DNA of 64,000 bases, taken from the IMG/VR virus record IMGVR_UViG_3300028591_000073, positions 96,001 to 160,000 of that record; one strand, written 5' to 3'. The stretch comes from a virus (taxonomy: Duplodnaviria; Caudoviricetes). Position 1 is the stretch's first letter. Every line of letters begins with the position of its first letter. Both the position numbers and the translations under genes were made by a program. Below, in pieces: positions 9,726-52,230 of this stretch. The notes beneath the pieces are model-generated. The model was not told the DNA's origin, did no database searches, and saw only the letters and a list, made by a program, of their open reading frames with translations.

Positions 9726-9760
9726 ATCTATATATAATTAATATGATATAGAAATATATC
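9726..9760 (+). promoter_or_regulatory. Putative phage early promoter, copy 1
   Basis: ATCTATATATAATTAATATGATATAGAAATATATC; motif recurs at least 6 times upstream of plus-strand genes. Confidence 0.7.
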
Positions 9761-31703: not shown

Positions 31704-34700
31704 TTATTGTATTTTTTGTGGTATATAATTTTCCACAGTTGCATGAATCCAATATCCACGAACATCTTTGTCTAAGATCACTCTTGTTCCGACATGAATA
31801 AATGGAATGATTTGAATTGTATTGTTTACATCTGCAATAGAAGCTGTCTGACTCTTGGAAACATATAGTGTGAAGAACTTAGTATATGTCCCCGTTGTAT
31901 GAATCGTAAACTTGTCAAGGCTTTCGGTGATGTGAAGTAATACATACAATTGGTTTGTTGTCATACTTCCATCAAAATGTGTCATGGGGAATAATGGATT
32001 TGTTAAAATTTCTTTTTTCCATGCTTGATCAAAATAGGGAAGAATCTGATAATTTGGAATTTCTCTCATGCCTAAATCATCTGACGTAGGATGATAAATT
32101 GAAACACCATTGATTTTGGGGATATTATAATATTCATTATAATCGTCATACTCATCCTCATTCAGATATCCGTTATTCCAAGTATCCATGATATTTGGTT
32201 CTACATCTACATTATTCGGATTTGTAATGAAACCCATACTAATGTCTTGAAGATTTGTATGATTAGGATATCCATAAAATGCATATCGCATGTCTTGTCC
32301 GATTAATTCATGATTAGATAAGAAGGCTTGTTGATAGGATGCGTATACATTCCCTTCCAAGTCAATATAAACACTATTCTTATTTGATAAAAGTGTGTCA
32401 TTTACATCATCTACCAATTCGATCAATTCAAAATTCTTTAAAGAAACCAAATTGATTAATTGGAAAGATGTTGGTGATAAGATAATCAGATTCTCAACAC
32501 CTTTGAGCTGACGACCGTTTACCCAGAATTCATATCTTCGTCTGGACAGAGGTGTTGGAATATATCCGGTTACATCAATGAATCCATTCTTGGGAATATT
32601 GTAACAACAATATCTACATACATGCAGATGATTAGAACGAACCACTTGCCTGTATTCTCGATCGGTTCCCGATAAATATGGACCTCCACCATGATATGTT
32701 AATCGCTTATCATATTGCTCATGACGAATATTGGAGATGGGATAACGAAGTTTGTTAATTGCATCACAGTAATACTCGAAAGGATTCATCATATATGTGC
32801 CATCATTTGTAATCTGATCATCGGATGCTTTTTTGTATGTTACCGAGATATTGATGTCACATGTACATGGTGACGAATATGGATGATCCGGAATCAGAAC
32901 GAATTCATCTGGAATTTCCATATACAATACATATTCCGATGGTATCTCAATCCATGAATCATCGTTTGTTGTGTAATTTGGTGTGATCAGTTCCTTTGAT
33001 ACATCAATATTGATGAGACCACCGATGCAACCATAATCGGAATCATGTAACACTGTACATGTATATGAATTATTGTGATCCAAGTCTACATTTGAATCGA
33101 TAATTCTGATGATTTGATTCTGATTTTCATCCACATCGGCAATTCCATGGAATATGATGGATGATACATTCCCATCATATTGAGATTTTTGATTGTCGAT
33201 ACAAATCAACTTGATATCCTCACCAGATAAGAAATTGTCAATTGGCTGTATGATTGTTGCAACATATGTGTTTTGATACAATGGCATTGGCGTGTGTGTA
33301 TCAATCAATGGATTCTTTACCAATACATGATATTCTTTTGCTGTTTCATGGATTGTGATTCCATCACTGCCATAATCATTGAGATATACATCCATATGAC
33401 AGAATCTTGGTTTTGGTGTATATGGTCGATCTCCTCGATGTGGCAAGCTGTTCCGTTTGATTTTAAATACCATTGCAGTCTCTGCATCATTTAAATCTGG
33501 TTTGATATCATGGAAATAAGCTTCCCAATTTTCTTTGGATGAGTGTGCTTCCAATGTCCCAGTTGCATCATAATGATAGTATTCTTCCAAATCCAAATGC
33601 TTTCTGATACATAACTTATCATACACATCTGTTTTGATTTCATCCGGATTATCTGGAATATTGTTGTTTGTTGACAGAATCGGTTTGAAACGAACATTGC
33701 ATGTTTTATCATGCAACGTGATTTCATCAAATACATCTGCCGTTTGATATGCGAAATAAATGAAGATTCTGTCTGCTTCAGGGAACTCTTCATTGTTGAT
33801 ACCTTCGATATATACACGATTGAACGTGCGTACACGATAAGCATCATATACATCCGTGTCATCAAAATTGGTATAGGTGTATGTGTCAGTCGCAACTGTC
33901 TTGACAGTATACGATGATGGTTTAATCCATTCCTTTTTATCCCAATTATACAACAACACTTCCAATTTACTGGACATGGGAATGTCACGTACATCGAACT
34001 CATATGTTCTGGGAAGTCTGGTTCGATCATTTGTCATATAGGTTTGTGCAGCTTCATATGATGTGACATTATACCACGTTGTCGCATGCTCTGGTTCATC
34101 CAAATAGGATGCTAATTTGGAAACCTTATCTTCCATGGATTTTATATCCAATTCCGATTGTTCAATTTGACGTTGTAATTTGATACGTTTACTTACCGTG
34201 GATGTCTGAACCAGTTGTGTGTGCAACTCTTGTAACGTATCTTTTTCCATTGCAATCTTCGATTCTAACTTCTCCATCAATTTTTGATATGTGAGTTTTT
34301 CCAAATTGATTACATTATGATCATTTGGTTCATCTCTTAAAATCGGATACAATTCTGGATCTGTTAATAAAGAACGATTTACATTCATTAACTTTACACA
34401 CATATGTGGCAATTCATTCTCGTAATGATGCCAACAATTCCATCCCATAAAATGAAAACGATAATGTTTATGTGCTTCATCTGGATATGGATTTGGAATG
34501 ATGTTATGGAACATGCCATTCACACGAGTATATACATAATCCCCATGTGTGTAAACATACACAGGGTCCCCAGGTACTGATAACATATCGGGATAATCTT
34601 CATCGTAGAATTCTAATTCTGGATCATACGATGGATTATAGTACATCTTGTAATCTGAATTGGAAAATTCATCTAAGAAGTTGGAAATGTTATCATCCAA

Positions 34701-37700
34701 TACTGTACATGAGATATCAGTTGTAAGATACCGATGAATCAATGTGGGATCTGTCATGGAAATCCATTTTGCATGACGGTGATCTACCCGTGCTTCCACG
34801 AATCCACGAGATTGGGAATGATCAATTGCTGTGATATAAGCTGGGAAAGTATAATGTAAATCATCATTTGTTGTGATATAAATCTTTTGATTTTCAAAGT
34901 ATTTACCACCAATAGATTCTATATCTTGACCAGTTGTTGCATTATTCGTGATCGTGATCTCCGGATGTATAATTTGTGATGGTTTGAAAAATAATTCTGT
35001 TGTTGGACAGCTGCCAACATCACTGAGAATGAATCGATTGATATCTTGATTTGATAAATAGATGCGATCAATGGATCCCGGTAACATGGTTCTCTTTTGT
35101 AGAATCATTTCTGAAGTATGCTGTAATTGTTGATACCGATTACCATATAACATCTCATAATTAGAACCATTTACTTTGGATACAACTGTACATCCATCTT
35201 CATTCACATGCATATCTTCATGGATGTTTTGCAAATCCACATGTGTATTTGTGGTATGATACAACATCTCCATCGATTGTAATAATTGTGCAGAATTACT
35301 GATTCTACGGAATGTGATACGACCAGAACGATCTGCAATCATGGTTCCATCTTTTCGATAGAATGAGAATGTCAAATCTTCCAATGTATTTCCATTAAAG
35401 AATACATATTCACAATTCTTACGGATTCCACCATGTCTTTTCACAACGTATTTCCCATCAACATATTGGGATGCGACATTAAAATATAAATTCTTTGTAC
35501 TTGACATGGTTGGCTTGTACAATGGTGGATACAGATGATTATCATCTGGAGAACTCGTTAACGTGACCATCATGTATGAAGGTTGTTCATTCCATGGTGA
35601 GACTGTGATATCTCGATCATCTGGTACGGTACTGTCATATTCTTGAATTTCATCAATCACATACATGTCGAATACATAATTTTCCATGGCATCATTTACA
35701 TATTCTTCCATGTTTGCAATGTAATTATTTTTTGCATCTTCAATGGATGTTAAGATATCTTGATAAACATCAAAATCGTTTATATTATTTAATAATCCAT
35801 CACGGAAATCATCCAAGTTTTTATACATTGTGGATGGTTGATTTTTAAATGTTGTACGTGCCGGTGATTTATCCGTGTCATCCAAATCAGAAACGGCATT
35901 TGCAATGGAATCATGATTGTAAAAATACCCGTGATCAAGATACAAATGTAATTGTTTGAATTGATAAATGTTTTGTTGCTTGTGGAATTTCTTGAAATAT
36001 AAATACAGATTCCGAACACGACGAATGGTATTTGTTTTAAATCCATATCGATAATACATATGCTTCAAACACTTCAACCACCAATCAATACTCCGATACA
36101 AGTTTTGATATGTGTCACGTGTAATGGAAAGCGGATTTGTCCATATCCTTGTTGTACCAAAATCCCATTTATTATCAGATTGCAATTGTAAATACATATT
36201 CAACAACTTGTCCAAAATACCATTCGTAGTTCCATGTTTCAAAAATGGCTCATGATCAATCAAATGATTTAATGTAAGCTCTGTGTAATGATGTGGTTTA
36301 TCCGATGCGGTAGTTCGGAATTTCACCAATTCATCATAAATCTTTTCCAATGCTTCTTTGGAAGATTCTATGACAAATGTGTGGTTTACACCAGTCTTGT
36401 AATTCGTTTCCAAATAACTGATGAGATCACGAACACAATTCAAATATTTTGTACACAACTTAGCCAATTGCATGTCGTAATAATATACTTGCAATCCAAT
36501 TGAAGTCCCCATCAACCAATGTTCTTGATCAATTGCCATGTTGTCAATTAACATATACTTTGTGTCTGTTTGTCCATAATCTCCAAATGTGTAAGCATAT
36601 GCATCATTGTCCAAACGTGTGGTTCCTTTAAAAATACCTGGAATCCCATAATACAAATGGGAGTTCCCGTCATTCAATATATTGGATGTTGTTGTATTAA
36701 CTGCAAATGAGGTATAGAATTGAGAAAAGTTCACGGGAATCATTGGTTGATTTTCAAATGCTTTTGCAATATTATAATCCAAATATCTTTCATCAAACTT
36801 GTCATTTGTTAAAATATGATAGAACATCGCTTGTGAATTATCATCACCATCATTCAATATAGAAAGTGTGTAGAACAGATAGTTCAATGCAAACGGTGCT
36901 CTTTCGGAAGATTCTGTATACTGATGAATCTGGTCGGATGTGATATTCGCACGATCATATTGTATCTGAGACCAGTCCGTGTGAACCAAATCCTTCGTAT
37001 CAATCTTACCACGTAACATGTCAGACATGACTTGCACAACTGTTTCATCCGAATATGTTCCATATAAGATCTTCGACAATTTCATCAATTGATTTTCGAC
37101 ATCCCAATATCTGATAAAGCCAAGATAACGTTCTGTCTCTGTGATAAAGGTATCATAATCCAATACATCTGTCAATGTAAATGTATCATCAATTTCTTGT
37201 GCACTTGGATAGAAGGTATCAGTATATAACACGAAGAATTTGAACATGTCATCTTCATATAGATTATTATTGATATAGAAGGTATTCTCGATTCCTTTGA
37301 AACGTTTGATATTGGGATATGCAAATACCCATGCTTGGTCATCTTTGGAATATGCCAATGAAATAAAACACTGTTCTGTGATTGGTCGATTGAATCGATT
37401 TGGAGATGTCTGCTCTAATAAGAAATTATCAATATCAGCTTGCATGTTATTGAATACTTGTAATGATTTGCAACCACGATATGGATCTGACAATCTTTCC
37501 ACAAATGCCTGGTATGCTTCTTCATAGAATGCAGGATGAATCAACTCTCGATAATCGTATTTATTATCCCAATCATCCTCTGAATAGAATGTTAATTGAT
37601 CAATGGATTCCATGAAATCCGAGAATTCCGATACCAATTCCGAAGAAACCAGATTTGTCAATAATGCACCTTTCACATATGCCGTATAATATGGATATAA

Positions 37701-38984
37701 AGACCGGTATATATTCCGTAATGGTGTAATCACTTTCGTTTTGAACTGTTCATATGTTTTAAAACTCTTCATCAACAATGCTTCTGTTATTTTGGAAATA
37801 GTTTGACGGTGTGTTTCCATATACTGATACAGATTGACACATTTTACCAATACATCAAACTGTAAATCATATGTTCGATCAATACAGATTGGAGGTGTAC
37901 AGATGGGTGGATCATAGAAGGGTGTGTCATCCTGTGTGGAAGCAACGATGGGATTTCCATCCAAATTCACAACAGGATTATTTAGATCCGTATAAACAGG
38001 ACGATTGTGTGTGAAATTCATATAATTTAATGCGGGAAAAATGCCATTGATTTCATGTAAGAATTTTGTGTGATAAATCATCATTGTCAAGCTGGTGGGT
38101 TGATAACGTTCCAACATTTGTAATACAGCAATCTGTAAATGAGGAATACATAACACACCTTTCTCATCAATTGTACCAAAGTTTGGAACAACTTGTACTT
38201 GCTTGACATAATCATCCATATAAATATCAACAATGCAGTTCTGGGATACATCAGATATTTTACCGGTGTCAAACTTGAGATAAGTTCCGTTAATGTCAGA
38301 TGGGGAAAGTTGCATTACTGTCACATCTGTTTGATCGAGTTTATAAATGATGACTTCCGCATTGCCCAAACCACCATATGCAAACTTAAAACGGAATCCA
38401 TAATCATTGAATCCCACATAGAATTCATTACAGATTTTGCCATTGATGGTACACAGCAGTGAGAAATCCAATAGTTTCGTATATGCATTCGTAGTGAATT
38501 CCGACACGTGAATGTATTGCCGATTTACAGAATCATGCATCTTGTTTAACTTTTGACGAATGAATTCATCACGTTCTCCAAAGTGTAATTGATCATATGG
38601 AACATCTGCAATATAATAAGAAGATCCACGTTCCATATGAATGCTTTTATCACTCAGATTATCAGCATGATACAATACAGCGTGTGTATTCACCAACATC
38701 TTACCCATGGCTCTACGTAATGTTTGTTCATACGTTTTTACCATAGCATCATCCACATCTTTAAAACTATAATTGGATTTGGACAATAACTCCATTAGTT
38801 TTTCAAATCCATATTTGTTACCCATAATTCCAAATGGTTGTTGTTGTAATAATTCAGAATGGGTTTCTTGTAAACGTTTATAACGATTTCCGATATCTAC
38901 CCAACTGGTATCATATGCTGTAAAGTATTTGTGAAACTCATAAAACCAGTCGTTGTAATTTATTTTCATATCATCATCTGACAT
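31704..38984 (-). CDS. Very large (2426 aa) virion structural protein, probably tail/baseplate
   Basis: Uninterrupted ORF in the late module; C-terminal PTPLSRRRYEFWVNGR motif. Confidence 0.7.
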   Translation of the reverse strand: MSDDDMKINYNDWFYEFHKYFTAYDTSWVDIGNRYKRLQETHSELLQQQPFGIMGNKYGFEKLMELLSKSNYSFKDVDDAMVKTYEQTLRRAMGKMLVNTHAVLYHADNLSDKSIHMERGSSYYIADVPYDQLHFGERDEFIRQKLNKMHDSVNRQYIHVSEFTTNAYTKLLDFSLLCTINGKICNEFYVGFNDYGFRFKFAYGGLGNAEVIIYKLDQTDVTVMQLSPSDINGTYLKFDTGKISDVSQNCIVDIYMDDYVKQVQVVPNFGTIDEKGVLCIPHLQIAVLQMLERYQPTSLTMMIYHTKFLHEINGIFPALNYMNFTHNRPVYTDLNNPVVNLDGNPIVASTQDDTPFYDPPICTPPICIDRTYDLQFDVLVKCVNLYQYMETHRQTISKITEALLMKSFKTYEQFKTKVITPLRNIYRSLYPYYTAYVKGALLTNLVSSELVSEFSDFMESIDQLTFYSEDDWDNKYDYRELIHPAFYEEAYQAFVERLSDPYRGCKSLQVFNNMQADIDNFLLEQTSPNRFNRPITEQCFISLAYSKDDQAWVFAYPNIKRFKGIENTFYINNNLYEDDMFKFFVLYTDTFYPSAQEIDDTFTLTDVLDYDTFITETERYLGFIRYWDVENQLMKLSKILYGTYSDETVVQVMSDMLRGKIDTKDLVHTDWSQIQYDRANITSDQIHQYTESSERAPFALNYLFYTLSILNDGDDNSQAMFYHILTNDKFDERYLDYNIAKAFENQPMIPVNFSQFYTSFAVNTTTSNILNDGNSHLYYGIPGIFKGTTRLDNDAYAYTFGDYGQTDTKYMLIDNMAIDQEHWLMGTSIGLQVYYYDMQLAKLCTKYLNCVRDLISYLETNYKTGVNHTFVIESSKEALEKIYDELVKFRTTASDKPHHYTELTLNHLIDHEPFLKHGTTNGILDKLLNMYLQLQSDNKWDFGTTRIWTNPLSITRDTYQNLYRSIDWWLKCLKHMYYRYGFKTNTIRRVRNLYLYFKKFHKQQNIYQFKQLHLYLDHGYFYNHDSIANAVSDLDDTDKSPARTTFKNQPSTMYKNLDDFRDGLLNNINDFDVYQDILTSIEDAKNNYIANMEEYVNDAMENYVFDMYVIDEIQEYDSTVPDDRDITVSPWNEQPSYMMVTLTSSPDDNHLYPPLYKPTMSSTKNLYFNVASQYVDGKYVVKRHGGIRKNCEYVFFNGNTLEDLTFSFYRKDGTMIADRSGRITFRRISNSAQLLQSMEMLYHTTNTHVDLQNIHEDMHVNEDGCTVVSKVNGSNYEMLYGNRYQQLQHTSEMILQKRTMLPGSIDRIYLSNQDINRFILSDVGSCPTTELFFKPSQIIHPEITITNNATTGQDIESIGGKYFENQKIYITTNDDLHYTFPAYITAIDHSQSRGFVEARVDHRHAKWISMTDPTLIHRYLTTDISCTVLDDNISNFLDEFSNSDYKMYYNPSYDPELEFYDEDYPDMLSVPGDPVYVYTHGDYVYTRVNGMFHNIIPNPYPDEAHKHYRFHFMGWNCWHHYENELPHMCVKLMNVNRSLLTDPELYPILRDEPNDHNVINLEKLTYQKLMEKLESKIAMEKDTLQELHTQLVQTSTVSKRIKLQRQIEQSELDIKSMEDKVSKLASYLDEPEHATTWYNVTSYEAAQTYMTNDRTRLPRTYEFDVRDIPMSSKLEVLLYNWDKKEWIKPSSYTVKTVATDTYTYTNFDDTDVYDAYRVRTFNRVYIEGINNEEFPEADRIFIYFAYQTADVFDEITLHDKTCNVRFKPILSTNNNIPDNPDEIKTDVYDKLCIRKHLDLEEYYHYDATGTLEAHSSKENWEAYFHDIKPDLNDAETAMVFKIKRNSLPHRGDRPYTPKPRFCHMDVYLNDYGSDGITIHETAKEYHVLVKNPLIDTHTPMPLYQNTYVATIIQPIDNFLSGEDIKLICIDNQKSQYDGNVSSIIFHGIADVDENQNQIIRIIDSNVDLDHNNSYTCTVLHDSDYGCIGGLINIDVSKELITPNYTTNDDSWIEIPSEYVLYMEIPDEFVLIPDHPYSSPCTCDINISVTYKKASDDQITNDGTYMMNPFEYYCDAINKLRYPISNIRHEQYDKRLTYHGGGPYLSGTDREYRQVVRSNHLHVCRYCCYNIPKNGFIDVTGYIPTPLSRRRYEFWVNGRQLKGVENLIILSPTSFQLINLVSLKNFELIELVDDVNDTLLSNKNSVYIDLEGNVYASYQQAFLSNHELIGQDMRYAFYGYPNHTNLQDISMGFITNPNNVDVEPNIMDTWNNGYLNEDEYDDYNEYYNIPKINGVSIYHPTSDDLGMREIPNYQILPYFDQAWKKEILTNPLFPMTHFDGSMTTNQLYVLLHITESLDKFTIHTTGTYTKFFTLYVSKSQTASIADVNNTIQIIPFIHVGTRVILDKDVRGYWIHATVENYIPQKIQ

Positions 38985-39101
38985 ATTGTTTCTTACCCAA
39001 GAATACTATTGTATTCAGACAGTAAGCTCATACCCAGTGTCGTCTGGGCTGTTTATATTCACAAATCAAGTAAGTCAGGATAACCTACTTTCTATATTAT
39101 T
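38985..39101 (-). ncRNA. Putative TnpB omegaRNA scaffold
   Basis: Directly 3' of tnpB: CCCAG-acgaca-CTGGG hairpin, then CTTAC..[GAATAC-aata-GTATTC]..GTAAG nested stem. Confidence 0.6.
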
Positions 39102-40343
39102 TTACGACACTTGAATGTCCTTGATTGTGAATTTTCTTATACTCCAAGAATTCACTTGTCTTAATGCTTCATTACGTAGATTGATAGCAGCATTCCAGTC
39201 TCTATCAATTGTTAATCCACATGAAGGACATTGATAAACTCTGTCTTTGAGTTGTAAATCTTTCTTAACATATCCACATCTATGACACATTTTAGATGAA
39301 CAAAACCACATATCTGCTCTAATGACAATATGGAATGGTTGTCGCAATTGCTTATATTCTAACATGGTTCTGAATATTCCAAATGCATTATCATATGTCG
39401 ATTTGCCTAACTTGAGAGATCTTCCAATATTTTGCATATTGATATCTTCAACGCCAATCACATCGTAGTTCTTGGTTATTGAACTACTCAGTTTGTGTAA
39501 GAAGTCATATCTTTGATTGGAAATATGCTCATGAAGTTTAGATGATTTAACTCTAGTTTTATCCCAATTTTTTCCATGAAGAGTTTGTCTACTTAATTTC
39601 TTATTAAGTATTCTTAAACGTTTTTCTGCTTTTCTGTAGTATCTGGGATACCCAGCAGAATTGCCATTGGAATCAACATATAATGATTTAGATGAATAAT
39701 CTAAACCAAGTATATTTAATTCATTATTTGGATTTAAGATGAAGCATTTACCAGATATCCCTTCTCTATCATCTTCATAATGATAACATATTGAAATATA
39801 ATATTTACAAGAGGAAGATTTAGAAATAGTGATATGCCCAAGTATCCAATGTTCGGGATGTTGTTTTTCTCTATGAGAGAATTTAGTCCAGCCTATAACT
39901 GGAATCTTTATTGATTTATTATCCCAGTTTATGCGAATATTCTCACCATGATAGTCAACATAACTTTGTTTACTTGTTTTTTTCTTAAATCTGGGAAATC
40001 CGACTGGTTTACCATCCTTTCTAAATTTCCAAATGTTTTTATTCTTTCGATAGATGTCCCACATACGATTGTATGCTTGTTTAAGAAACATCTTTTCATT
40101 ATTCATAGCATGTCTGTCAATGATGAGGTCCTTATTAGATTTATTCAAGAATGGATGTTCTGATATGATATCACAGCAGTTAACTATTGTAGCTGATACT
40201 TCTTTATCGAAGAATGTTTGTGAAAGTTTCTCGAGAAGTTTATTCCACATAAATCTACAACATCCGAATGTATCATTGATAATCTTCTTTTGTTGTTCGT
40301 TTGGAAATATTTGAAACTTCCTACTGACATAGATTGTTGACAT
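39102..40343 (-). CDS. tnpB: IS200/IS605-family RNA-guided endonuclease TnpB
   Basis: N-terminal KFQIFPNEQQ..TFGCCRFMWN; GFPRFKKK; RuvC LGLD, VEDIN, DRDWNAAINL; Zn finger CHRCG..CPSCG. Confidence 0.93.
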   Translation of the reverse strand: MSTIYVSRKFQIFPNEQQKKIINDTFGCCRFMWNKLLEKLSQTFFDKEVSATIVNCCDIISEHPFLNKSNKDLIIDRHAMNNEKMFLKQAYNRMWDIYRKNKNIWKFRKDGKPVGFPRFKKKTSKQSYVDYHGENIRINWDNKSIKIPVIGWTKFSHREKQHPEHWILGHITISKSSSCKYYISICYHYEDDREGISGKCFILNPNNELNILGLDYSSKSLYVDSNGNSAGYPRYYRKAEKRLRILNKKLSRQTLHGKNWDKTRVKSSKLHEHISNQRYDFLHKLSSSITKNYDVIGVEDINMQNIGRSLKLGKSTYDNAFGIFRTMLEYKQLRQPFHIVIRADMWFCSSKMCHRCGYVKKDLQLKDRVYQCPSCGLTIDRDWNAAINLRNEALRQVNSWSIRKFTIKDIQVS

Positions 40344-40367
40344 ATAATTCACCTTCTTTATTTATTT

Positions 40368-40385
40368 TATCATGTGAATTATATG
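40368..40385 (-). promoter_or_regulatory. Early-type promoter variant upstream of tnpB
   Basis: CATATAATTCACATGATA versus consensus TATATAATTAATATGATA. Confidence 0.5.
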
Positions 40386-40461
40386 TGCATAATAATTATA
40401 TATTCTACATTGTAACATAAATAACATAATCAACAAGTTTAATCATCTCCTACAATAAAAG

Positions 40462-40475
40462 TTACAGATTCGTGA
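40462..40475 (-). promoter_or_regulatory. Putative late promoter followed by an orphan RBS
   Basis: TCACGAATCTGTAACTTTT..AGGAGATG, nearly the same layout as upstream of 17141. Confidence 0.5.
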
Positions 40476-40501
40476 ATGGGGGCTATTAGCCCCCATTTCT
40501 A

Positions 40502-43500
40502 TTATTCTTCCCATATTTTCTTACAAGTCCTTTTGAGCTCAATCAAACATTTGTTACCAGCAGCATTTACCACAAGTGATGGTACCATACGTTTTAACAC
40601 GGACGTTGGTGCCTGGAACAAGTCGATTGGTTCGTCCGGACGGAATTCAGAATATGGTTCCAATCCATCAGGAATGATTTCTGAGATAACTTGTTTACAT
40701 GCGGAATAGTCTGCGATCTTATCTCCAACAGATACTTCATCATCATGTGAGATATAGATCTCCACTAAGACATCGCAATAGATACCCTTGATGGAAGGTG
40801 TTTTCAATGGTTCAGTTGGACGATCATACAGCGTTCCCAATTTGTAAACAGTACTTGTGCCATCATACTTATCCAAGATCTTACGCTTTGCACGATTTTG
40901 TTTAAAGTGTTCAGATACAATTTTAAACAGAGATGGAGATAATTTATCCAAACTCTTATTTGTGTAGATACGCACATCTACAACCTTACCTGCGTTCTCT
41001 GCTTTTTTGATTCGTTTAAAGGAATCATCTTCTGCAGTTGCTCCAAATGCTTTCAAGAAGTTGTCGACAGATTTATCACCGACATTACCCAAGCCAAATG
41101 TTAATAATGGATCTCCGACTTCAATTTCATCACCGACTTGTACAATCTTATCCACATCTTCTGTCGCATCTAATTTGATGATTTCTTTCATGATAACAGT
41201 TGTTGACATTTTTTTGGACAGTCTTGTTGTCATCGCACCGGCATCTTCATATGTGAAATAGTTACCATAGAATGCGACTTTACCAATTGGACCAACATTC
41301 ATACGAACTTGTCCCATGGAATCTTTTGTAAAGTATTTTTCATGATATGCCAGAATGTCATTCTTTTTAAATGATTCACCGGGTTGGAAATTTGGAACCA
41401 GTTTGTTATTCACATAGAAGCCAGAACCAGAGTTGAATCCCATCTTGTCTCCCACAGGAACTGCTTGTTTCTCTTGGTTCTTATATTGGACGATCATGTA
41501 TCCATCTGCAATCTCCAATACTTTACCATCATCTTCTGCCATGACTGAGAATTCCTCTGTTAAATATGCAGGTGTAATTTCATCAACCCCATTTGAAATT
41601 AGTGCTGGTTCGGCACCAGCTGTGGATACGATATGCCCAGACTGTGAACAAGCCATGGCAATACGAATCGCATCATCTCGAGATACTGTTCCAGGTGTTA
41701 ATAATTCAGAAAAGGAAGATAATTGTAAATCATCAAATTCCGTATCTTCTACAGAATTTGTGGACGTATAACCACGAACAGATTCAATCTTAGGGTCAGC
41801 GGTTAATTGTCGTTGCATACCAACATTAGCAGAGTTTGGTGAAGCCATGGCAATCTTACCAATCATGGAGTCATTATAACTTCTTCTCGCTTTACTGTAA
41901 GAACGTGTGTTGTTAATACCACGGAATCCTTTTGTGGAAATAACTTCACGAGCATGCAGTTCGATTACCGGATTCAATGCAGAAATTTGGTTGCATGTTT
42001 CCAAATTGGTTAATTCTCCAATGATACAGTTTGGATTGAATTGAAATTTGGATTTACGTGAACGAGAACCAACCTTATTGTTGTACTTAGACATTTCTAC
42101 CGCCAAATGATAATGTATCATTGCAGGAATAATTTCCGAACAACGAATGCGATATAATGAGGAATTAAATTCGCTCGTGTAAGTATTATCGCATAATAGA
42201 TGTGTTGCATACAATAATAATCCACACAATGTATCCGGCATATTATAATGATGACAAACATCTGCAGTGATTGCATCCATGAAGAAATTATAATACGTAA
42301 TGAACGTTGTTAATTGTGAATATTGAGAGAAGAAATGTTGGTTGAATAAATCGACATAAATCGAATTCGATTCCATGATTGGAATATCAAAATCGGCAAA
42401 GTTATATGCTTTGGTATTTAAACGATAGAATCCATTGAATACCAATTGTCCATAAATGGTATTTCGAATGGCGATAGATTTATCTTTGAATGGATATACA
42501 ATGTAATTGGGATCCTTGAATCGTGGTTCGACAATCCGATATTCCACACCAGATTGTTTTAATAATGAAGAGATACCTTCCCACGCAGCAATTGCAACAC
42601 CCATTGGGACTGTACCACCAATCTTAATGGTAGCATACATACTTGTCTTACCTGGCTTTGTTTTGTAGAATTCGGATTGTAATGCATCTGGCAATAAATC
42701 AACGATTGTTTGTACGATTGTTTTGTCTTGTCTGGTCTTGGAAGTTTCTGTATTAACAACAACTGGAGTCTGTCCAATCATACCACAACAGAATTCATCT
42801 TGATTTACAGTAACGAATTGCCATTTCTTCAAACAATCATTTCTATTGAAACAGAATTCTGCATTTGCTTCTGGAATGGTGAAAGAATACCACATTTTTG
42901 CAAACTCATCATATTCGATGGTGGATACATATTTCATATTGGAATTGATGTTGGAACCTAATTTCACATACTTGTTCGTGCCATCCGGCTTCAATTGTTT
43001 TTCTGCCAATTTACGTAAAGCCGTTAAGTCAACCAATGATTTGGTATCATATCGAGCCAATGTAATCTTATTGTAATTGCTTGTAATAATGGCAGTCTTC
43101 GGATTAATCTTTAATACTGGGATCGGAAAGTCTTGTTTGTCAATGGTATACCATGTGCCATTCACAAAGAAACGACCATTAAACATCTTAGGAATGAAGA
43201 TATGAATGATATTCTGCAATCCACTTTCTTTGCTTTTTAATGTAATCTTCCAGTCATTGATCATGGAAACTGCATTGGATTTATCTTGGATATCCACATT
43301 TGTGACAAAGAAACCATCGGCTGGTTTAGACAATCCCATGAGTGTGGCAACAATATCACGATCCATCAACTTGGATTCATATTCCTTGGTAACACGTGAA
43401 AATTGTGTACCACGTTTTGCAACACTCGTTGTGGTTGTTTTTAATGGACGATACGGTGCGGGTTTTGGTACATCATCCACTTGCACCAACTTATTGAATG

Positions 43501-44809
43501 TGACATTATTCAATTTCAGATTACCCATTTCTTGACGTAATTTCTCTTCACGGGGACTGGTGGTGGTATTCATCACATCTTTGTTATTCGCTGGAGCCGC
43601 GTCAATTTTCTGTGCCGCTTGATTGATTAATTCCTTTTCTACGGGAGAATCACCAAGCTGTGACAAATCATCACGAAGCTTTTGTGTTTGTTGTGGATTG
43701 ATTTGTTGATTGGGATTGATGCGTTGTTGTAAATCGGCATTAATGGCAAATGCTTTTGCATCATATAATTGCTGTTTATTTCGTTTTACAAAGTCATCTT
43801 GGGCTTGTGGTTGTTCATCATTCCCATATTGATCAAAGAGATTGTTAATCGTAGAACGAATATCACGAATGGAATTTCGATGTGTATCTTGTAATCTTTG
43901 TAAGTTCTCATCTAATTGATTGATGCGGATACCATCATCCTTTGGTTTTTCTTCGATGGATTCTTCCTCATCCAATTGATCCATCATACGATCTTTCTCT
44001 TTATCCGCTTCTTTTGCTTCTTCTGCATCTTGTTTGATTTCATCTAACGAAGCAGCCGCTTGTCTGGACTCTGGAGAAGACACACCGGGAGTACCAACAA
44101 ATTCCACACCGATCTTATTTAACATTTGACGAAGACGCATGCGATCACGGTCTTCCCATGCAGACAAATCAAATTTATAATCTTCATCACTAGAATGGAA
44201 AATAATGGTCCATGATGCCTTTTTAATTTTCTCCTTTGGAGAAAGTGCATATGCTGTTAATAATGCATTCACCAAGTCTGTTCTGAATGTCTCCATTGTT
44301 GGATTCTTATAGATACGGAATCTGCGTGTATCAATCCACAATACTTTCTTTTTGGAGAAATTTAGTTTATTTGCCATCAAACCAAATAACATAAAGATTT
44401 GATCTTGAATTACATTTGGTGCCATTTGTTTTAATGATGGAGATATCTTACTCATTAACTCTGATAATGGAATATACAAATTCTCTTTATATGTTTTCTC
44501 ATAAGGAAACCTAATTGCAATGAGATTTGGTATCATCTTCTGGTTTTGTGCATAGACAATCTTTTTATTATATTCATTTTGTGTTAGAATATAACGAACA
44601 GGTCTACCACCAATTGTGTCAACAAAACGACATGGTATCAACAAATTCTTATAGTTCATCTTTGGTTGTGGGAACATTTTAATCATTTCTAAGTCATACT
44701 CATATGAGTCAGACAACAAAAAAATGGAAATATCTGAATTGTCCGATGGTAACCGGAATCTTTGTTGTGTGGGTAAATAACTTGGTCTGGAATTGAAATC
44801 TACAGCCAT
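40502..44809 (-). CDS. Multisubunit RNA polymerase beta subunit (virion-type, phiKZ/AR9-like)
   Basis: SPNSANVGMQRQL, DDAIRIAMACSQ, FTYEDAGAM, VGDKIADYSACKQVIS, PTSVLKRM; ends before the beta C-terminal region, as in split phage RNAPs. Confidence 0.88.
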   Translation of the reverse strand: MAVDFNSRPSYLPTQQRFRLPSDNSDISIFLLSDSYEYDLEMIKMFPQPKMNYKNLLIPCRFVDTIGGRPVRYILTQNEYNKKIVYAQNQKMIPNLIAIRFPYEKTYKENLYIPLSELMSKISPSLKQMAPNVIQDQIFMLFGLMANKLNFSKKKVLWIDTRRFRIYKNPTMETFRTDLVNALLTAYALSPKEKIKKASWTIIFHSSDEDYKFDLSAWEDRDRMRLRQMLNKIGVEFVGTPGVSSPESRQAAASLDEIKQDAEEAKEADKEKDRMMDQLDEEESIEEKPKDDGIRINQLDENLQRLQDTHRNSIRDIRSTINNLFDQYGNDEQPQAQDDFVKRNKQQLYDAKAFAINADLQQRINPNQQINPQQTQKLRDDLSQLGDSPVEKELINQAAQKIDAAPANNKDVMNTTTSPREEKLRQEMGNLKLNNVTFNKLVQVDDVPKPAPYRPLKTTTTSVAKRGTQFSRVTKEYESKLMDRDIVATLMGLSKPADGFFVTNVDIQDKSNAVSMINDWKITLKSKESGLQNIIHIFIPKMFNGRFFVNGTWYTIDKQDFPIPVLKINPKTAIITSNYNKITLARYDTKSLVDLTALRKLAEKQLKPDGTNKYVKLGSNINSNMKYVSTIEYDEFAKMWYSFTIPEANAEFCFNRNDCLKKWQFVTVNQDEFCCGMIGQTPVVVNTETSKTRQDKTIVQTIVDLLPDALQSEFYKTKPGKTSMYATIKIGGTVPMGVAIAAWEGISSLLKQSGVEYRIVEPRFKDPNYIVYPFKDKSIAIRNTIYGQLVFNGFYRLNTKAYNFADFDIPIMESNSIYVDLFNQHFFSQYSQLTTFITYYNFFMDAITADVCHHYNMPDTLCGLLLYATHLLCDNTYTSEFNSSLYRIRCSEIIPAMIHYHLAVEMSKYNNKVGSRSRKSKFQFNPNCIIGELTNLETCNQISALNPVIELHAREVISTKGFRGINNTRSYSKARRSYNDSMIGKIAMASPNSANVGMQRQLTADPKIESVRGYTSTNSVEDTEFDDLQLSSFSELLTPGTVSRDDAIRIAMACSQSGHIVSTAGAEPALISNGVDEITPAYLTEEFSVMAEDDGKVLEIADGYMIVQYKNQEKQAVPVGDKMGFNSGSGFYVNNKLVPNFQPGESFKKNDILAYHEKYFTKDSMGQVRMNVGPIGKVAFYGNYFTYEDAGAMTTRLSKKMSTTVIMKEIIKLDATEDVDKIVQVGDEIEVGDPLLTFGLGNVGDKSVDNFLKAFGATAEDDSFKRIKKAENAGKVVDVRIYTNKSLDKLSPSLFKIVSEHFKQNRAKRKILDKYDGTSTVYKLGTLYDRPTEPLKTPSIKGIYCDVLVEIYISHDDEVSVGDKIADYSACKQVISEIIPDGLEPYSEFRPDEPIDLFQAPTSVLKRMVPSLVVNAAGNKCLIELKRTCKKIWEE

Positions 44810-46036: not shown

Positions 46037-46110
46037 ATTTACGTCCTCCTTTCTACGTGTTAATTATATATGTTTTCATAAAAATAAAAATTCTATTATT
46101 TCAATTTTAT

Positions 46111-50279: not shown

Positions 50280-50310
50280 AAGATCACCTCACTGAAAGGA
50301 GATTAGGCAT

Positions 50311-52230
50311 ATGGGTATAGTCAATCAATATGAAACCATGATTGTTGAGATGTATCAACAAACACATCCAAATGTTGACCCACTTCGTTTGAGACAGCTC
50401 GTGTCAAATATGGTTGAGAATCATTTCCAGGATATTCCAGTTCAAATGGACAATAATATTCGGCATGAAACATTCGATACCACAATGACAAATGTATTTG
50501 ATTGGATGGATGAAAGAAAACCAATTATTTCATCAAATGGGACATTCTTCAAACAGCACTCTGAATATCTATCACCAACTGTATTGTTCTTGGAAACATT
50601 ACAGAAGGACAGAAAAGATACCAAGAGAGAGATGTACAAACATCCAAAAGGAAGTATCATGTATCTAAACTTAAACTGTGCACAAGGACAGATTAAGGTA
50701 ATCATGAATTCCGACTATGGCGGAAGTGGTACTCCACTCTCACCTTTTTACAGCATGTATATTCCACCGGCTACAACGGGTTCTGCCAAGAATATGACAA
50801 CCACGTTAATTTGTTGTCTGGAGCTCTTATCTGGGAACAAGGACAGTTGGGCAAAGTTAAATGGAATCAATGAATTGTACGATTTCATCAGAAAAGTGTT
50901 AACAACAAATACTTCAAATCGACAACTAATGGTGCTAGACTCTTACAAGGATGAAGAAGTTGTTGGTCATTTAATTGATATGACAACAAATATCAGCTTG
51001 CAAGATATCAAATATTTGAAAATGTATGTTGCGACATTAACCAATCCCCAGAAGACAAAATTGATGTTGGCAAATAATCTGCGTCATGTTCTAAAAGCAT
51101 ATCTACATGGTAGAGTTGGTTCTATTATGGCATATCTCAAGAGCCATCGTTTGCATGTAGACAACATCACACAAGAGAATATTGATGAATCTGGATATGG
51201 CGTAAAGCCTCCAAAAGAAATCTTAAGTGATTTGGAATATTGTAAGCAGTTTGTATTGGACAATTGTGTGTACCCATTCATTCCCAATGATTGCGAAACT
51301 CGTGCATGGAATATGCACCGTGATGTTGTATGTGTCACAGATACTGACTCATTGATGGTACACTTTGCATCCTATCTGGATGAGTTTCAAGCACATGTAT
51401 CATCTTACCGTGATTCTTGTTTGATTGCATCTGCATTCGGCTTCCGTTTATTCATTGAAGCCGTTATTCCACAGATGACAGAAAACATTGTCATGTATCG
51501 TGGCATTCAGGATGAATATTATCGCAGAAAGTTTGTATTCAAGAATGAATTTGCATTCTTGGCAATGTCATTGTTTGCCAAGAAGATGTACTCTGCATCA
51601 TGCTTTGTACAAGAAGGGAATCCACGTAATATCCATGAAACAGCAGTCACTGGATTATCATTTAAGAAACGTGACTCAGCAGAATTCTTAGAACCAATTA
51701 TGTTACGTTTGCATGACCAATATGTGTTAACTGCGGATAAGATTAACGTATCTGCACTATTGGATGAATATTATGCTTTACGAGATAAATTGAAAGCAGT
51801 TGTGAAAACGGATGCTCATTATCACAAAGCCCAAAGTGTCAAGACAATTAATGCTTATAAATCATTGCCAGCTCACATGAAAGGAATGCTTATATGGAAT
51901 ACCATGTTCCCGGAGGAAGAAATCCTACCGATGGATAGAGTCACCGTTATTCCGTTATCATGGAAGCTATTGGAAGAAAATAGCCACATTCCCGAATTAG
52001 CAAGGATTGCACAATTGGCAAGTATTGATAATCCCAAGCATAAGACAGAACCAGTATTGTCAATTCCAGAAACGTATCACGAGATTCCCGATTGGTTACA
52101 ACCAGCAATTGATGAAGACTATTGTGTGGATAAGTTATTATCTCCATTCAAACAGTTGCTCGGGTTGTTTGATGTTGTTATCAACGATACTCGGGGTGGC
52201 ATGATTCCGAGTCGTATGATATTCCTATAA
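50311..52230 (+). CDS. Family B DNA polymerase catalytic polypeptide (split, phiKZ-like)
   Basis: QIKVIMNSDYG (motif B), VTDTDS (motif C), FKNEF..AKKMYS..TGLSFKKRD; no exonuclease or motif A recognised. Confidence 0.85.
   Translation: MGIVNQYETMIVEMYQQTHPNVDPLRLRQLVSNMVENHFQDIPVQMDNNIRHETFDTTMTNVFDWMDERKPIISSNGTFFKQHSEYLSPTVLFLETLQKDRKDTKREMYKHPKGSIMYLNLNCAQGQIKVIMNSDYGGSGTPLSPFYSMYIPPATTGSAKNMTTTLICCLELLSGNKDSWAKLNGINELYDFIRKVLTTNTSNRQLMVLDSYKDEEVVGHLIDMTTNISLQDIKYLKMYVATLTNPQKTKLMLANNLRHVLKAYLHGRVGSIMAYLKSHRLHVDNITQENIDESGYGVKPPKEILSDLEYCKQFVLDNCVYPFIPNDCETRAWNMHRDVVCVTDTDSLMVHFASYLDEFQAHVSSYRDSCLIASAFGFRLFIEAVIPQMTENIVMYRGIQDEYYRRKFVFKNEFAFLAMSLFAKKMYSASCFVQEGNPRNIHETAVTGLSFKKRDSAEFLEPIMLRLHDQYVLTADKINVSALLDEYYALRDKLKAVVKTDAHYHKAQSVKTINAYKSLPAHMKGMLIWNTMFPEEEILPMDRVTVIPLSWKLLEENSHIPELARIAQLASIDNPKHKTEPVLSIPETYHEIPDWLQPAIDEDYCVDKLLSPFKQLLGLFDVVINDTRGGMIPSRMIFL

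Follow-up and report, generated by a model that had tools for sequence, protein, structure and literature searches.

TnpB, the ancestor of Cas12, is encoded by one of the most abundant prokaryotic genes, and its known benefit is to restore a transposon after excision by the transposase TnpA. That benefit cannot apply to the element described here, because it has no TnpA. The element, comprising a leader, tnpB and an omegaRNA scaffold, lies in the 64,000-nucleotide stretch of DNA that we analysed (the window; bases 96001-160000 of IMG/VR virus record IMGVR_UViG_3300028591_000073, which is 294,548 bp long with a GC content of 37.6%). The phage is a jumbo phage with multisubunit RNA polymerases, and word matching places it in the ruminant gut, a sheep gut metagenome, probably the source, containing 99% of the sampled words. 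We read the element as a TnpA-independent, RNA-guided homing element, acting as a gene drive between co-infecting phages, and put the probability of this at about 0.6. A sequence-only reading had taken the same unit to be possibly domesticated, placed behind a phage early promoter and able to attack TnpB-free alleles.

Among the closest described systems is the TnpB-omegaRNA pair of ISDra2 and other IS200/IS605 insertion sequences (ISs). The phage element shares with it the protein architecture and catalytic residues, a guide RNA that runs across the tnpB 3′ end and the right end and takes its guide from the right flanking DNA, and the logic of cutting the transposon-free site. ISDra2 TnpB cuts 15-21 bp from its target-adjacent motif (TAM), and IS200/IS605 elements canonically insert with precision at either end, leaving the target unduplicated (PMC8612924). 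The marks of an autonomous member, namely a Y1 TnpA, hairpins at both ends and duplication-free insertion at a fixed motif, were not found here. Unlike ISDra2, the phage element lacks a TnpA partner and a conserved left end, its family shows variable target duplications where canonical transposition makes none, and the motif 5′ of the target is purine-AG within or beside a Shine-Dalgarno sequence (SD) rather than T-rich. The family is also confined to a phage clade, and its RNA has no Rfam match.

TnpB drives the spread of an IS through plasmid populations, and TnpA is not needed for this (Mears et al. 2025, PMC11870625), while a review of OMEGA systems treats homing into co-infecting phages as a theoretical case, "non-restorative homing" (PMC13565253). 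The phage element would share with both the TnpA-independent spread by cutting empty alleles. In the plasmid work (PMC11870625) the drive was shown experimentally and with a canonical IS605 element, whereas our case concerns jumbo phages and non-canonical ends and is built on sequence only. The free-standing homing endonucleases of T4-like phages (SegF, SegB, Mob) are likewise intergenic nuclease genes between conserved phage genes, with the same presence/absence polymorphism in close relatives and with the competitor's homologous site as target. They differ in that the guide RNA here would record the insertion site automatically, so that self and non-self differ by the insertion itself, and in that the nuclease is RuvC-type, not GIY-YIG or HNH. 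TldRs, nuclease-dead TnpB-like repressors of which some are phage-encoded, have lost the RuvC catalytic residues. They too are TnpB-derived, directed by a guide RNA and without a transposase; since the triad described below is intact and conserved, the element is not a TldR.

Bacillus Nitunavirus phages (phiNIT1, BSP18, SPG24) offer a further likeness, tnpB-only elements in lytic phages with empty sites in sister phages. Those of phiNIT1 (L120) and BSP18 (L122) are 99.8% identical, have identical ends and lie 3′ of TTTAT with no duplication, and phage Grass (L121) is empty at the corresponding site. The tnpB sites in this group differ (pghP/orf116a; portal/prohead protease genes). Identical ends, near identity, TTTAT and the lack of duplication point to recent canonical transposition, and the rumen family has none of these features. 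The Bacillus phages are a ready laboratory system for tests of a TnpB drive between phages.

Results

The insertion of the element between the SD and the start codon of a giant gene (Table 1) is proven by empty alleles that lack the element. There are five of these: L006/L028, L027, L029/30 and one contig each in runs X2 and X3. Alignment with tnpB-free relatives defines the empty site in L027, X2 and X3, which lack exactly the inserted stretch. L027, a JGI contig whose giant-protein N-terminus is 97% identical, reads SD, ATGATGAT, ATG and lacks the element. The X2 and X3 contigs (Logan contigs aligned to the locus; one from a bovine run and one from a goat-gut run of separate studies) have flanks 96-98% identical to ours and join 38972 straight to 40442, skipping 1,469 bases, with 7 bases at the joint that fit either side. 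L006/L028, 80% identical in the C-terminus of the neighbouring RNA polymerase (RNAP) subunit, keeps the terminator hairpin, the late motif and the SD, and in L006 6 nt stand in place of the 1.47-kb element. The gap from SD to ATG is 8 nt in L027 and 10 nt in L006. The five alleles bear out the sequence-only reading in its placement of the unit between the giant gene and its native promoter and SD, and the late-type motif (40474-40462) and SD (40451-40447) are both present and now open only into the element.

The direct repeat AGATGAT that flanks the element occurs once in the empty allele of L027. A chance overlap between element and target was considered as its origin and rejected, since all nine examined sites show site-specific repeats. 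The site thus has the presence/absence polymorphism of the homing class, with the target intact in L027 and disrupted in the filled genome.

Judged by conservation, the right end of the element is base 38978. Nine complete right ends share the terminal ...TGTCAG and diverge directly afterwards, and an independent copy of about 90% identity in X3 loses homology exactly at 38978 (a loose end). The left border differs in sequence and position between family sites; the right end is conserved and structured. In agreement with the sequence-only reading, no left-end hairpin was found in the 107-nt leader (40344-40450, minus strand), which folds no better than shuffles (z -0.51). Exact-pattern scans of IMG/VR for the predicted empty junction, the right-end consensus and the predicted empty site of a second locus at 82 kb found none of them, and megablast of the locus against 50,697 phage records gave no match.

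Table 1. Features of the element and its surroundings (window positions)
Feature	Position	Strand	Basis or remark
Giant gene, 2,421 aa, unknown function	31704..38969	-	True start ATG 38969 by homology
Predicted 20-nt guide and self flank	38958..38977	-	Conservation stop at 38978 in nine right ends
Inserted element proper (leader, tnpB, omegaRNA scaffold), 1,464 bp; 1,469 bp including duplicated ATGAT	38978..40441	-	
omegaRNA scaffold (predicted), overlapping the last ~130 nt of tnpB and ending at the right end	38978..39230	-	5′ limit approximate
Covarying omegaRNA stems	39049-39032 and 39026-38992	-	Consensus fold, pair counts
tnpB, 413 aa, intact RuvC triad and zinc finger	39102..40343	-	Pfam, ISDra2 alignment, family alignment
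Element-borne promoter-like 18-mer, 15/18 against phage early promoter core	40368..40385	-	Genome census
7-bp direct repeat AGATGAT (target duplication)	Left copy 40442..40448, right copy 38979-38973	-	X2/X3 joint
Native Shine-Dalgarno AGGAG of giant gene, displaced 1.47 kb from start codon	40447..40451	-	
Putative late promoter motif, AR9-type (CACG-N6-TAA), natively serving giant gene	40462..40474	-	Conservation in relatives
Terminator-like hairpin immediately 3′ of RNAP beta gene	40474..40498	-	11-bp stem (terminator scan)
RNAP beta-like subunit, 1,435 aa, upstream gene	40502..44809	-	PHROG phrog_3148 "RNA polymerase beta subunit", E 3e-141

The tnpB open reading frame (ORF) matches Pfam PF12323 (HTH_OrfB_IS605), PF01385 (OrfB_IS605) and PF07282 (Cas12f1-like_TNB), all above cut-offs and in the domain order of TnpB, with N-terminal HTH/WED-REC, OrfB_IS605 core and C-terminal zinc-ribbon TNB domain. 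Its product can be aligned from end to end to ISDra2 TnpB in structures 8h1j/8bf8 (E about 1e-46). The motifs LGLD, VED and DRD fall on the ISDra2 RuvC motifs GVD, GTEH and HDRD and give D215, E299 and D382; the ISDra2 counterparts of the last two are presumably E278 and D361. The number of the ISDra2 catalytic residue D191 was checked in a published paper. Together with the two CxxC pairs, CHRC (353) and CPSC (372), this alignment upholds the three RuvC acidic residues and zinc finger that had been noticed by eye. The triad is invariant in 10 family members and in 24 homologues, and the zinc-finger cysteines across the ten phage-borne family copies. Pairwise ratios of nonsynonymous to synonymous substitution (dN/dS) between the window copy and nine members are 0.11-0.22 at a dS of about 0.65-1.05; such low dN/dS at high dS indicates that the nuclease has been kept functional through a long divergence without a transposase. 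TnpB is, on this evidence, an intact nuclease that we predict to be active. The lack of tnpA near the unit extends to the whole 294,548-bp genome, in which a search that included positive controls found no Y1 TnpA (PF01797), and no TnpA stands beside any family member.

Family sequences predict a structured omegaRNA that reaches from the 3′ end of tnpB to the right end, with a guide taken from the flank behind it. A 273-nt segment spanning the tnpB 3′ end and the downstream DNA folds with a z of -3.8, and the last 90 nt, aligned over 11 copies, form three stems with 97.5% of cells paired and with compensatory changes on both sides in 9 of the 18 pairs; controls in which the stems were slid gave only 27-45% pairing. 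The omega-like hairpins reported after the stop codon are therefore backed by fold energy and covarying stems alike. A fourth hairpin, directly after the stop codon, is present in some family members and cleanly deleted in others. Against a covariance model (R1) the window copy scores 98 bits, and a genome search with the model returned exactly three copies, that of the window and two orphans at 82 kb. An Rfam scan of 38000-41500 gave chance-level matches only, and no described RNA family fits. In X15, a sheep-gut metatranscriptome, short contigs of 100% identity fall within the giant gene, tnpB (39587-39737) and the 82-kb orphan omegaRNA; their depth of 2-5 could reflect DNA carry-over, which makes them weak evidence of expression.

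Because the right end is fixed at 38978, the predicted guide is 38977-38958, and the two guide starts proposed in the sequence-only reading have to be moved, the first lying 10 nt too far upstream and the second 47 nt too far downstream of this border. The guide so defined takes in the spacer between SD and start, the giant-gene start codon (38969-38967) and codons 2-4. It matches the empty allele of L027 at 20/20 positions with GGAG directly 5′, which makes an attack on TnpB-free alleles plausible. A genome search found a sole perfect match in the phage's own genome; it is the self site, with TCAG of the right end directly before it. Immediately 5′ of the target the family has the tetranucleotides GGAG (three sites), AGAG, TGAG, AAAG (two sites), TAAG and TGAC, so that purine-AG stands there at 8/9 sites and is usually the SD itself, while the right end has TCAG. 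The TAM is possibly purine-rich (purine-AG).

Protein searches returned about 18 homologues at 75-87% amino acid identity, all metagenomic, and besides the window copy DNA was compared for nine further insertion sites; the contigs of P0005 and P0016 were compared by their gene tables. The element is a member of a diverged, phage-restricted tnpB family that is polymorphic, multi-site and selfish, which speaks against its domestication. Family contexts are phage-like, with tnpB co-oriented with its neighbours, and several of the contigs are phages 93-96% identical to that of the window. In related phages about eleven different sites are occupied, almost all of them a short way upstream of a start codon; at most of them tnpB lies 107-219 nt upstream of the start of the next gene, and at 7/10 sites the predicted guide spans that gene's start codon. 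Neighbouring genes are unrelated between sites (a DNA polymerase gene; genes beside a RusA gene and two metallophosphatase genes). Between the left border and the tnpB ATG downstream of it there are anywhere from about 6 to about 100 nt, and in two members tnpB uses the target gene's own SD. A target duplication accompanies 9/9 examined insertions; seven measure 4-9 nt, another about 7-17 nt and the ninth about 116 nt, and the duplications repeat the first target nucleotides at the left junction. Among 185,579 bacterial and archaeal species-representative genomes there is no close copy; the best match is 55% identical, on a 138-kb contig of a buffalo-cecum metagenome-assembled genome that may itself be viral, and the others reach 39% or lower.

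The genome under study supplies six empty sites of its own, at about 165280, 56027, 142047, 254900, 257930 and 146300 in G000 coordinates, which refer to the whole genome (coordinates given without a handle are window positions). Two of them are inside the window, near 46047 and 50300. The first (~46040-46050) is occupied in L025/L026, upstream of a 197-aa gene, and at the L025 site the 20-nt target differs at 5-6 positions despite flanks 95-96% identical; the second (~50295-50311) is occupied in L033 and in the P0005 contig, upstream of a 639-aa DNA polymerase. The relative G001, available as a 75%-complete fragment only, has no tnpB or omegaRNA copy.

The phage early promoter core of 18 nt has 12 exact copies in the genome, each within a conserved element of about 60 nt. 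The full unit consists of a T-rich upstream block, the core and a palindromic downstream block, and nearly all units are on the plus strand; with 5 close variants added to the exact cores, those in the window lie near 9731, 17212, 28113, 30437, 31117 and 46116 (+). An early-motif variant had been noted upstream of tnpB and is there, matching the core at 15/18 positions. Two of its three mismatches are at positions also variable among bona fide copies, and it lacks the conserved flanks of the unit. Only three non-family sites in the genome match the core as well, so such a match within a leader of 100 nt is unlikely to be due to chance (estimate about 1e-3). An early-like motif also precedes tnpB at other sites, in L023, L024 and L031 (16/18 in L031). 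The motif therefore travels with the element, and is a part of it and not of the insertion site, which does not support a placement of the unit behind a resident early promoter. A sigma-70 promoter scan found 11 sites against 11.5 expected and lends no support to a host-type promoter.

The late motif is identical in L006 and L027 and has one change in L029/30. The pattern [AC]AC[ACG]-N6-TAA occurs 31 times on both strands of the 294.5-kb genome, against about 200 for the same pattern at other spacings and about 350 after shuffling, with 60 at spacing 7. This 6-10-fold avoidance is specific to spacing 6 and holds on both strands, and such spacing-specific depletion supports the late motif as a genuine recognition sequence and putative promoter. 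Six of the 31 sites precede, by 15-30 nt, the SD and ATG with which a long minus-strand ORF begins. Simple k-mer searches for the motif were uninformative; it was the comparison of spacings that was informative.

The giant gene had been read as encoding 2426 aa, with its start at 38984. Homology places the start at 38969, since the N-terminus MKINYNDW is common to L027 (97%), L028 (52%) and L029 (56%), and the in-frame ATG at 38984 falls inside the right end of the element. The protein has no Pfam or PHROG match, and a virion role for it is at most putative. Right ends with AATATG are found in the window copy, in copy B of the 82-kb locus and in L031/L032, and other members have AATTTG or ATTG. 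In the window the AATATG change makes an ATG at 38982-38984(-), in frame with the giant gene (MSDDD-MKINY...); in copy B (G000 ~82283) the same ATG opens a 6-codon ORF whose stop overlaps the ATG of the next gene. This ATG may compensate for the displaced SD. Late transcripts must cross the element to reach a giant gene that is now without its SD.

The RNAP beta-like product on the other side of the element is 27-29% identical to the beta subunits of phiR1-37, Staphylococcus S6 and PBS1, and its Pfam match to Rpb2 domain 6 is weak. The hairpin that follows its gene is kept in L006, L027 and L029.

The second, decayed locus (G000 82272-82641, minus strand) lies 13.4 kb before the window start, where it separates another gene's SD from its ATG; the repeat at this site measures 4-6 bp (GATT). 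Its parts are the 3′ portion of an omegaRNA (copy A), a tnpB C-terminal remnant of 39 codons and a complete omegaRNA (copy B). Orphan copy B retains just the span of the omegaRNA scaffold, and since the remnant starts just upstream of the first predicted stem, a full-length guide RNA may persist there without a nuclease. Copy A has the sole variant right end, ...TGTCGG, and borders directly on the remnant, in the manner of a template switch or a nested insertion.

Discussion

Cleavage, the TAM, promoter use and homing are what we infer from these data, and the order of events that we favour is as follows. Transcription, probably from the element's early-like leader, by read-through from the displaced late promoter, or from both, would yield TnpB and an omegaRNA whose 3′ guide is the spacer and start codon of the giant gene. 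On co-infection with an element-free relative, the ribonucleoprotein would cut the empty allele, in which purine-AG (here GGAG) stands immediately before the 20 matching nucleotides; the own copy would be spared, because there it is the right end (..TCAG) that stands before them. With the element-bearing genome as template, recombinational repair would then copy the element into the cut allele, and failed repair would mean loss of the competitor genome. Several observations weigh against homing of this kind. The purine-AG motif is based on nine sites only, and one of them (L020) reads TGAC. In L006, the closest sequenced empty-site relative beyond the 97% group, the target has changed too far to be cut. 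Insertion deprives the giant gene of its SD, a cost that the drive must outweigh; access of TnpB is uncertain if the phage modifies or compartmentalises its DNA; and homing leaves the arrival at new sites without TnpA unexplained.

On how the family spreads we offer a tentative proposal, possible but on balance doubtful, in which the element spreads by a TnpA-independent, right-end-anchored route coupled to the TnpB cut. With cleavage at the distance known from ISDra2, up to about 20 nucleotides of the target would stay on the left end of the recipient, and this end would be joined by microhomology to the strand copied leftwards from the homologous right flank. Joining of this kind would keep the right end invariant, make the left border ragged and produce TAM-proximal duplications that mostly do not exceed 21 nt. 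It does not account for the 116-nt duplication or for the first colonisation of new sites. A single crossover of a circular form at a microhomology is an alternative. A reverse-transcriptase origin of the ragged left ends was set aside, as no RVT_1 domain was found in the genome. A target motif that overlaps the SD would steer insertions to gene starts.

Three other accounts of the locus were weighed against homing. The element could be a stranded passenger, an immobile tnpB-only relic of the IS200/IS605 type with no function for itself or the phage, as the genome without TnpA, the lack of left-end structure and the decay of its second copy to a tnpB remnant and two orphan omegaRNA 3′ parts would suggest. 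We hold this to be unlikely, since the dN/dS values and the invariant triad in ten copies argue for sustained selection on the nuclease, the omegaRNA stems covary, and the element is polymorphic among phages 96-98% identical and occupies about eleven sites in the clade. The element could also be domesticated for the benefit of the phage, either as a TldR-like regulator of the giant gene or as a weapon against competitors that does not home. Such a role fits the guide over the start region of a large late gene, a leader that resembles a phage early promoter and the position inside the giant gene's leader, where omegaRNA maturation would cut that gene's transcript. It is rendered rather improbable by a RuvC triad that is intact, unlike that of TldR, by close relatives that do without the element, and by family members that precede unrelated genes.

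The least probable account, in our judgement, is that of an ordinary IS moved in trans by a host TnpA (peel-and-paste), with the phage as accidental target. Just this pattern is seen in the cultured Bacillus phages phiNIT1 and BSP18, with Grass empty, and the sequence-only reading had itself named intact IS ends and many near-identical host copies as the signs of a recent IS insertion. Neither was seen, the ends being not intact and the 185,579 species genomes holding no close homologue. The left border differs at every family site, the copies are 75-87% identical and so not near-identical, and every insertion carries a target duplication, which IS200/IS605 transposition does not make (PMC8612924).

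The locus offers a test case from nature, defined by its sequence, in which to ask whether TnpB by itself can be a gene drive between viruses, and it combines an intact nuclease, a mapped guide and wild empty alleles with the exact target. Junctions that depart from the canonical form hint at how elements of this kind could spread or be remodelled in the absence of a transposase, and the apparent preference for SD and start-codon targets, if true, would be a neat answer to target escape. The single TnpB could act in trans with the orphan omegaRNAs at 82 kb as well; several guides per nuclease, if true, would be a step towards a CRISPR-like arrangement. On the practical side, the family is a source of a compact TnpB whose TAM is possibly purine-rich.

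Some family members depart from the common layout. In L020 (3860-3985, 5314-5440) the leader is replaced by a duplicate, ~116-130 nt long and ~90% identical, of the region upstream of the downstream gene, and tnpB thus stands behind a copy of that gene's own upstream region; duplications at the other sites are far shorter. L021 (2092-2135) carries a degenerate second right-end terminus (like ...AATTTGTCCGG) about 27 nt downstream of the right end, perhaps a scar left when an element inserted there before. In three related contigs, L033 (620-1534), L023 (788-1966) and L019 (1-1285), genes or domains resembling NUMOD4/HNH homing endonucleases are found within 0-2 kb upstream of tnpB, so that protein-guided and RNA-guided selfish nucleases share neighbourhoods in this phage clade.

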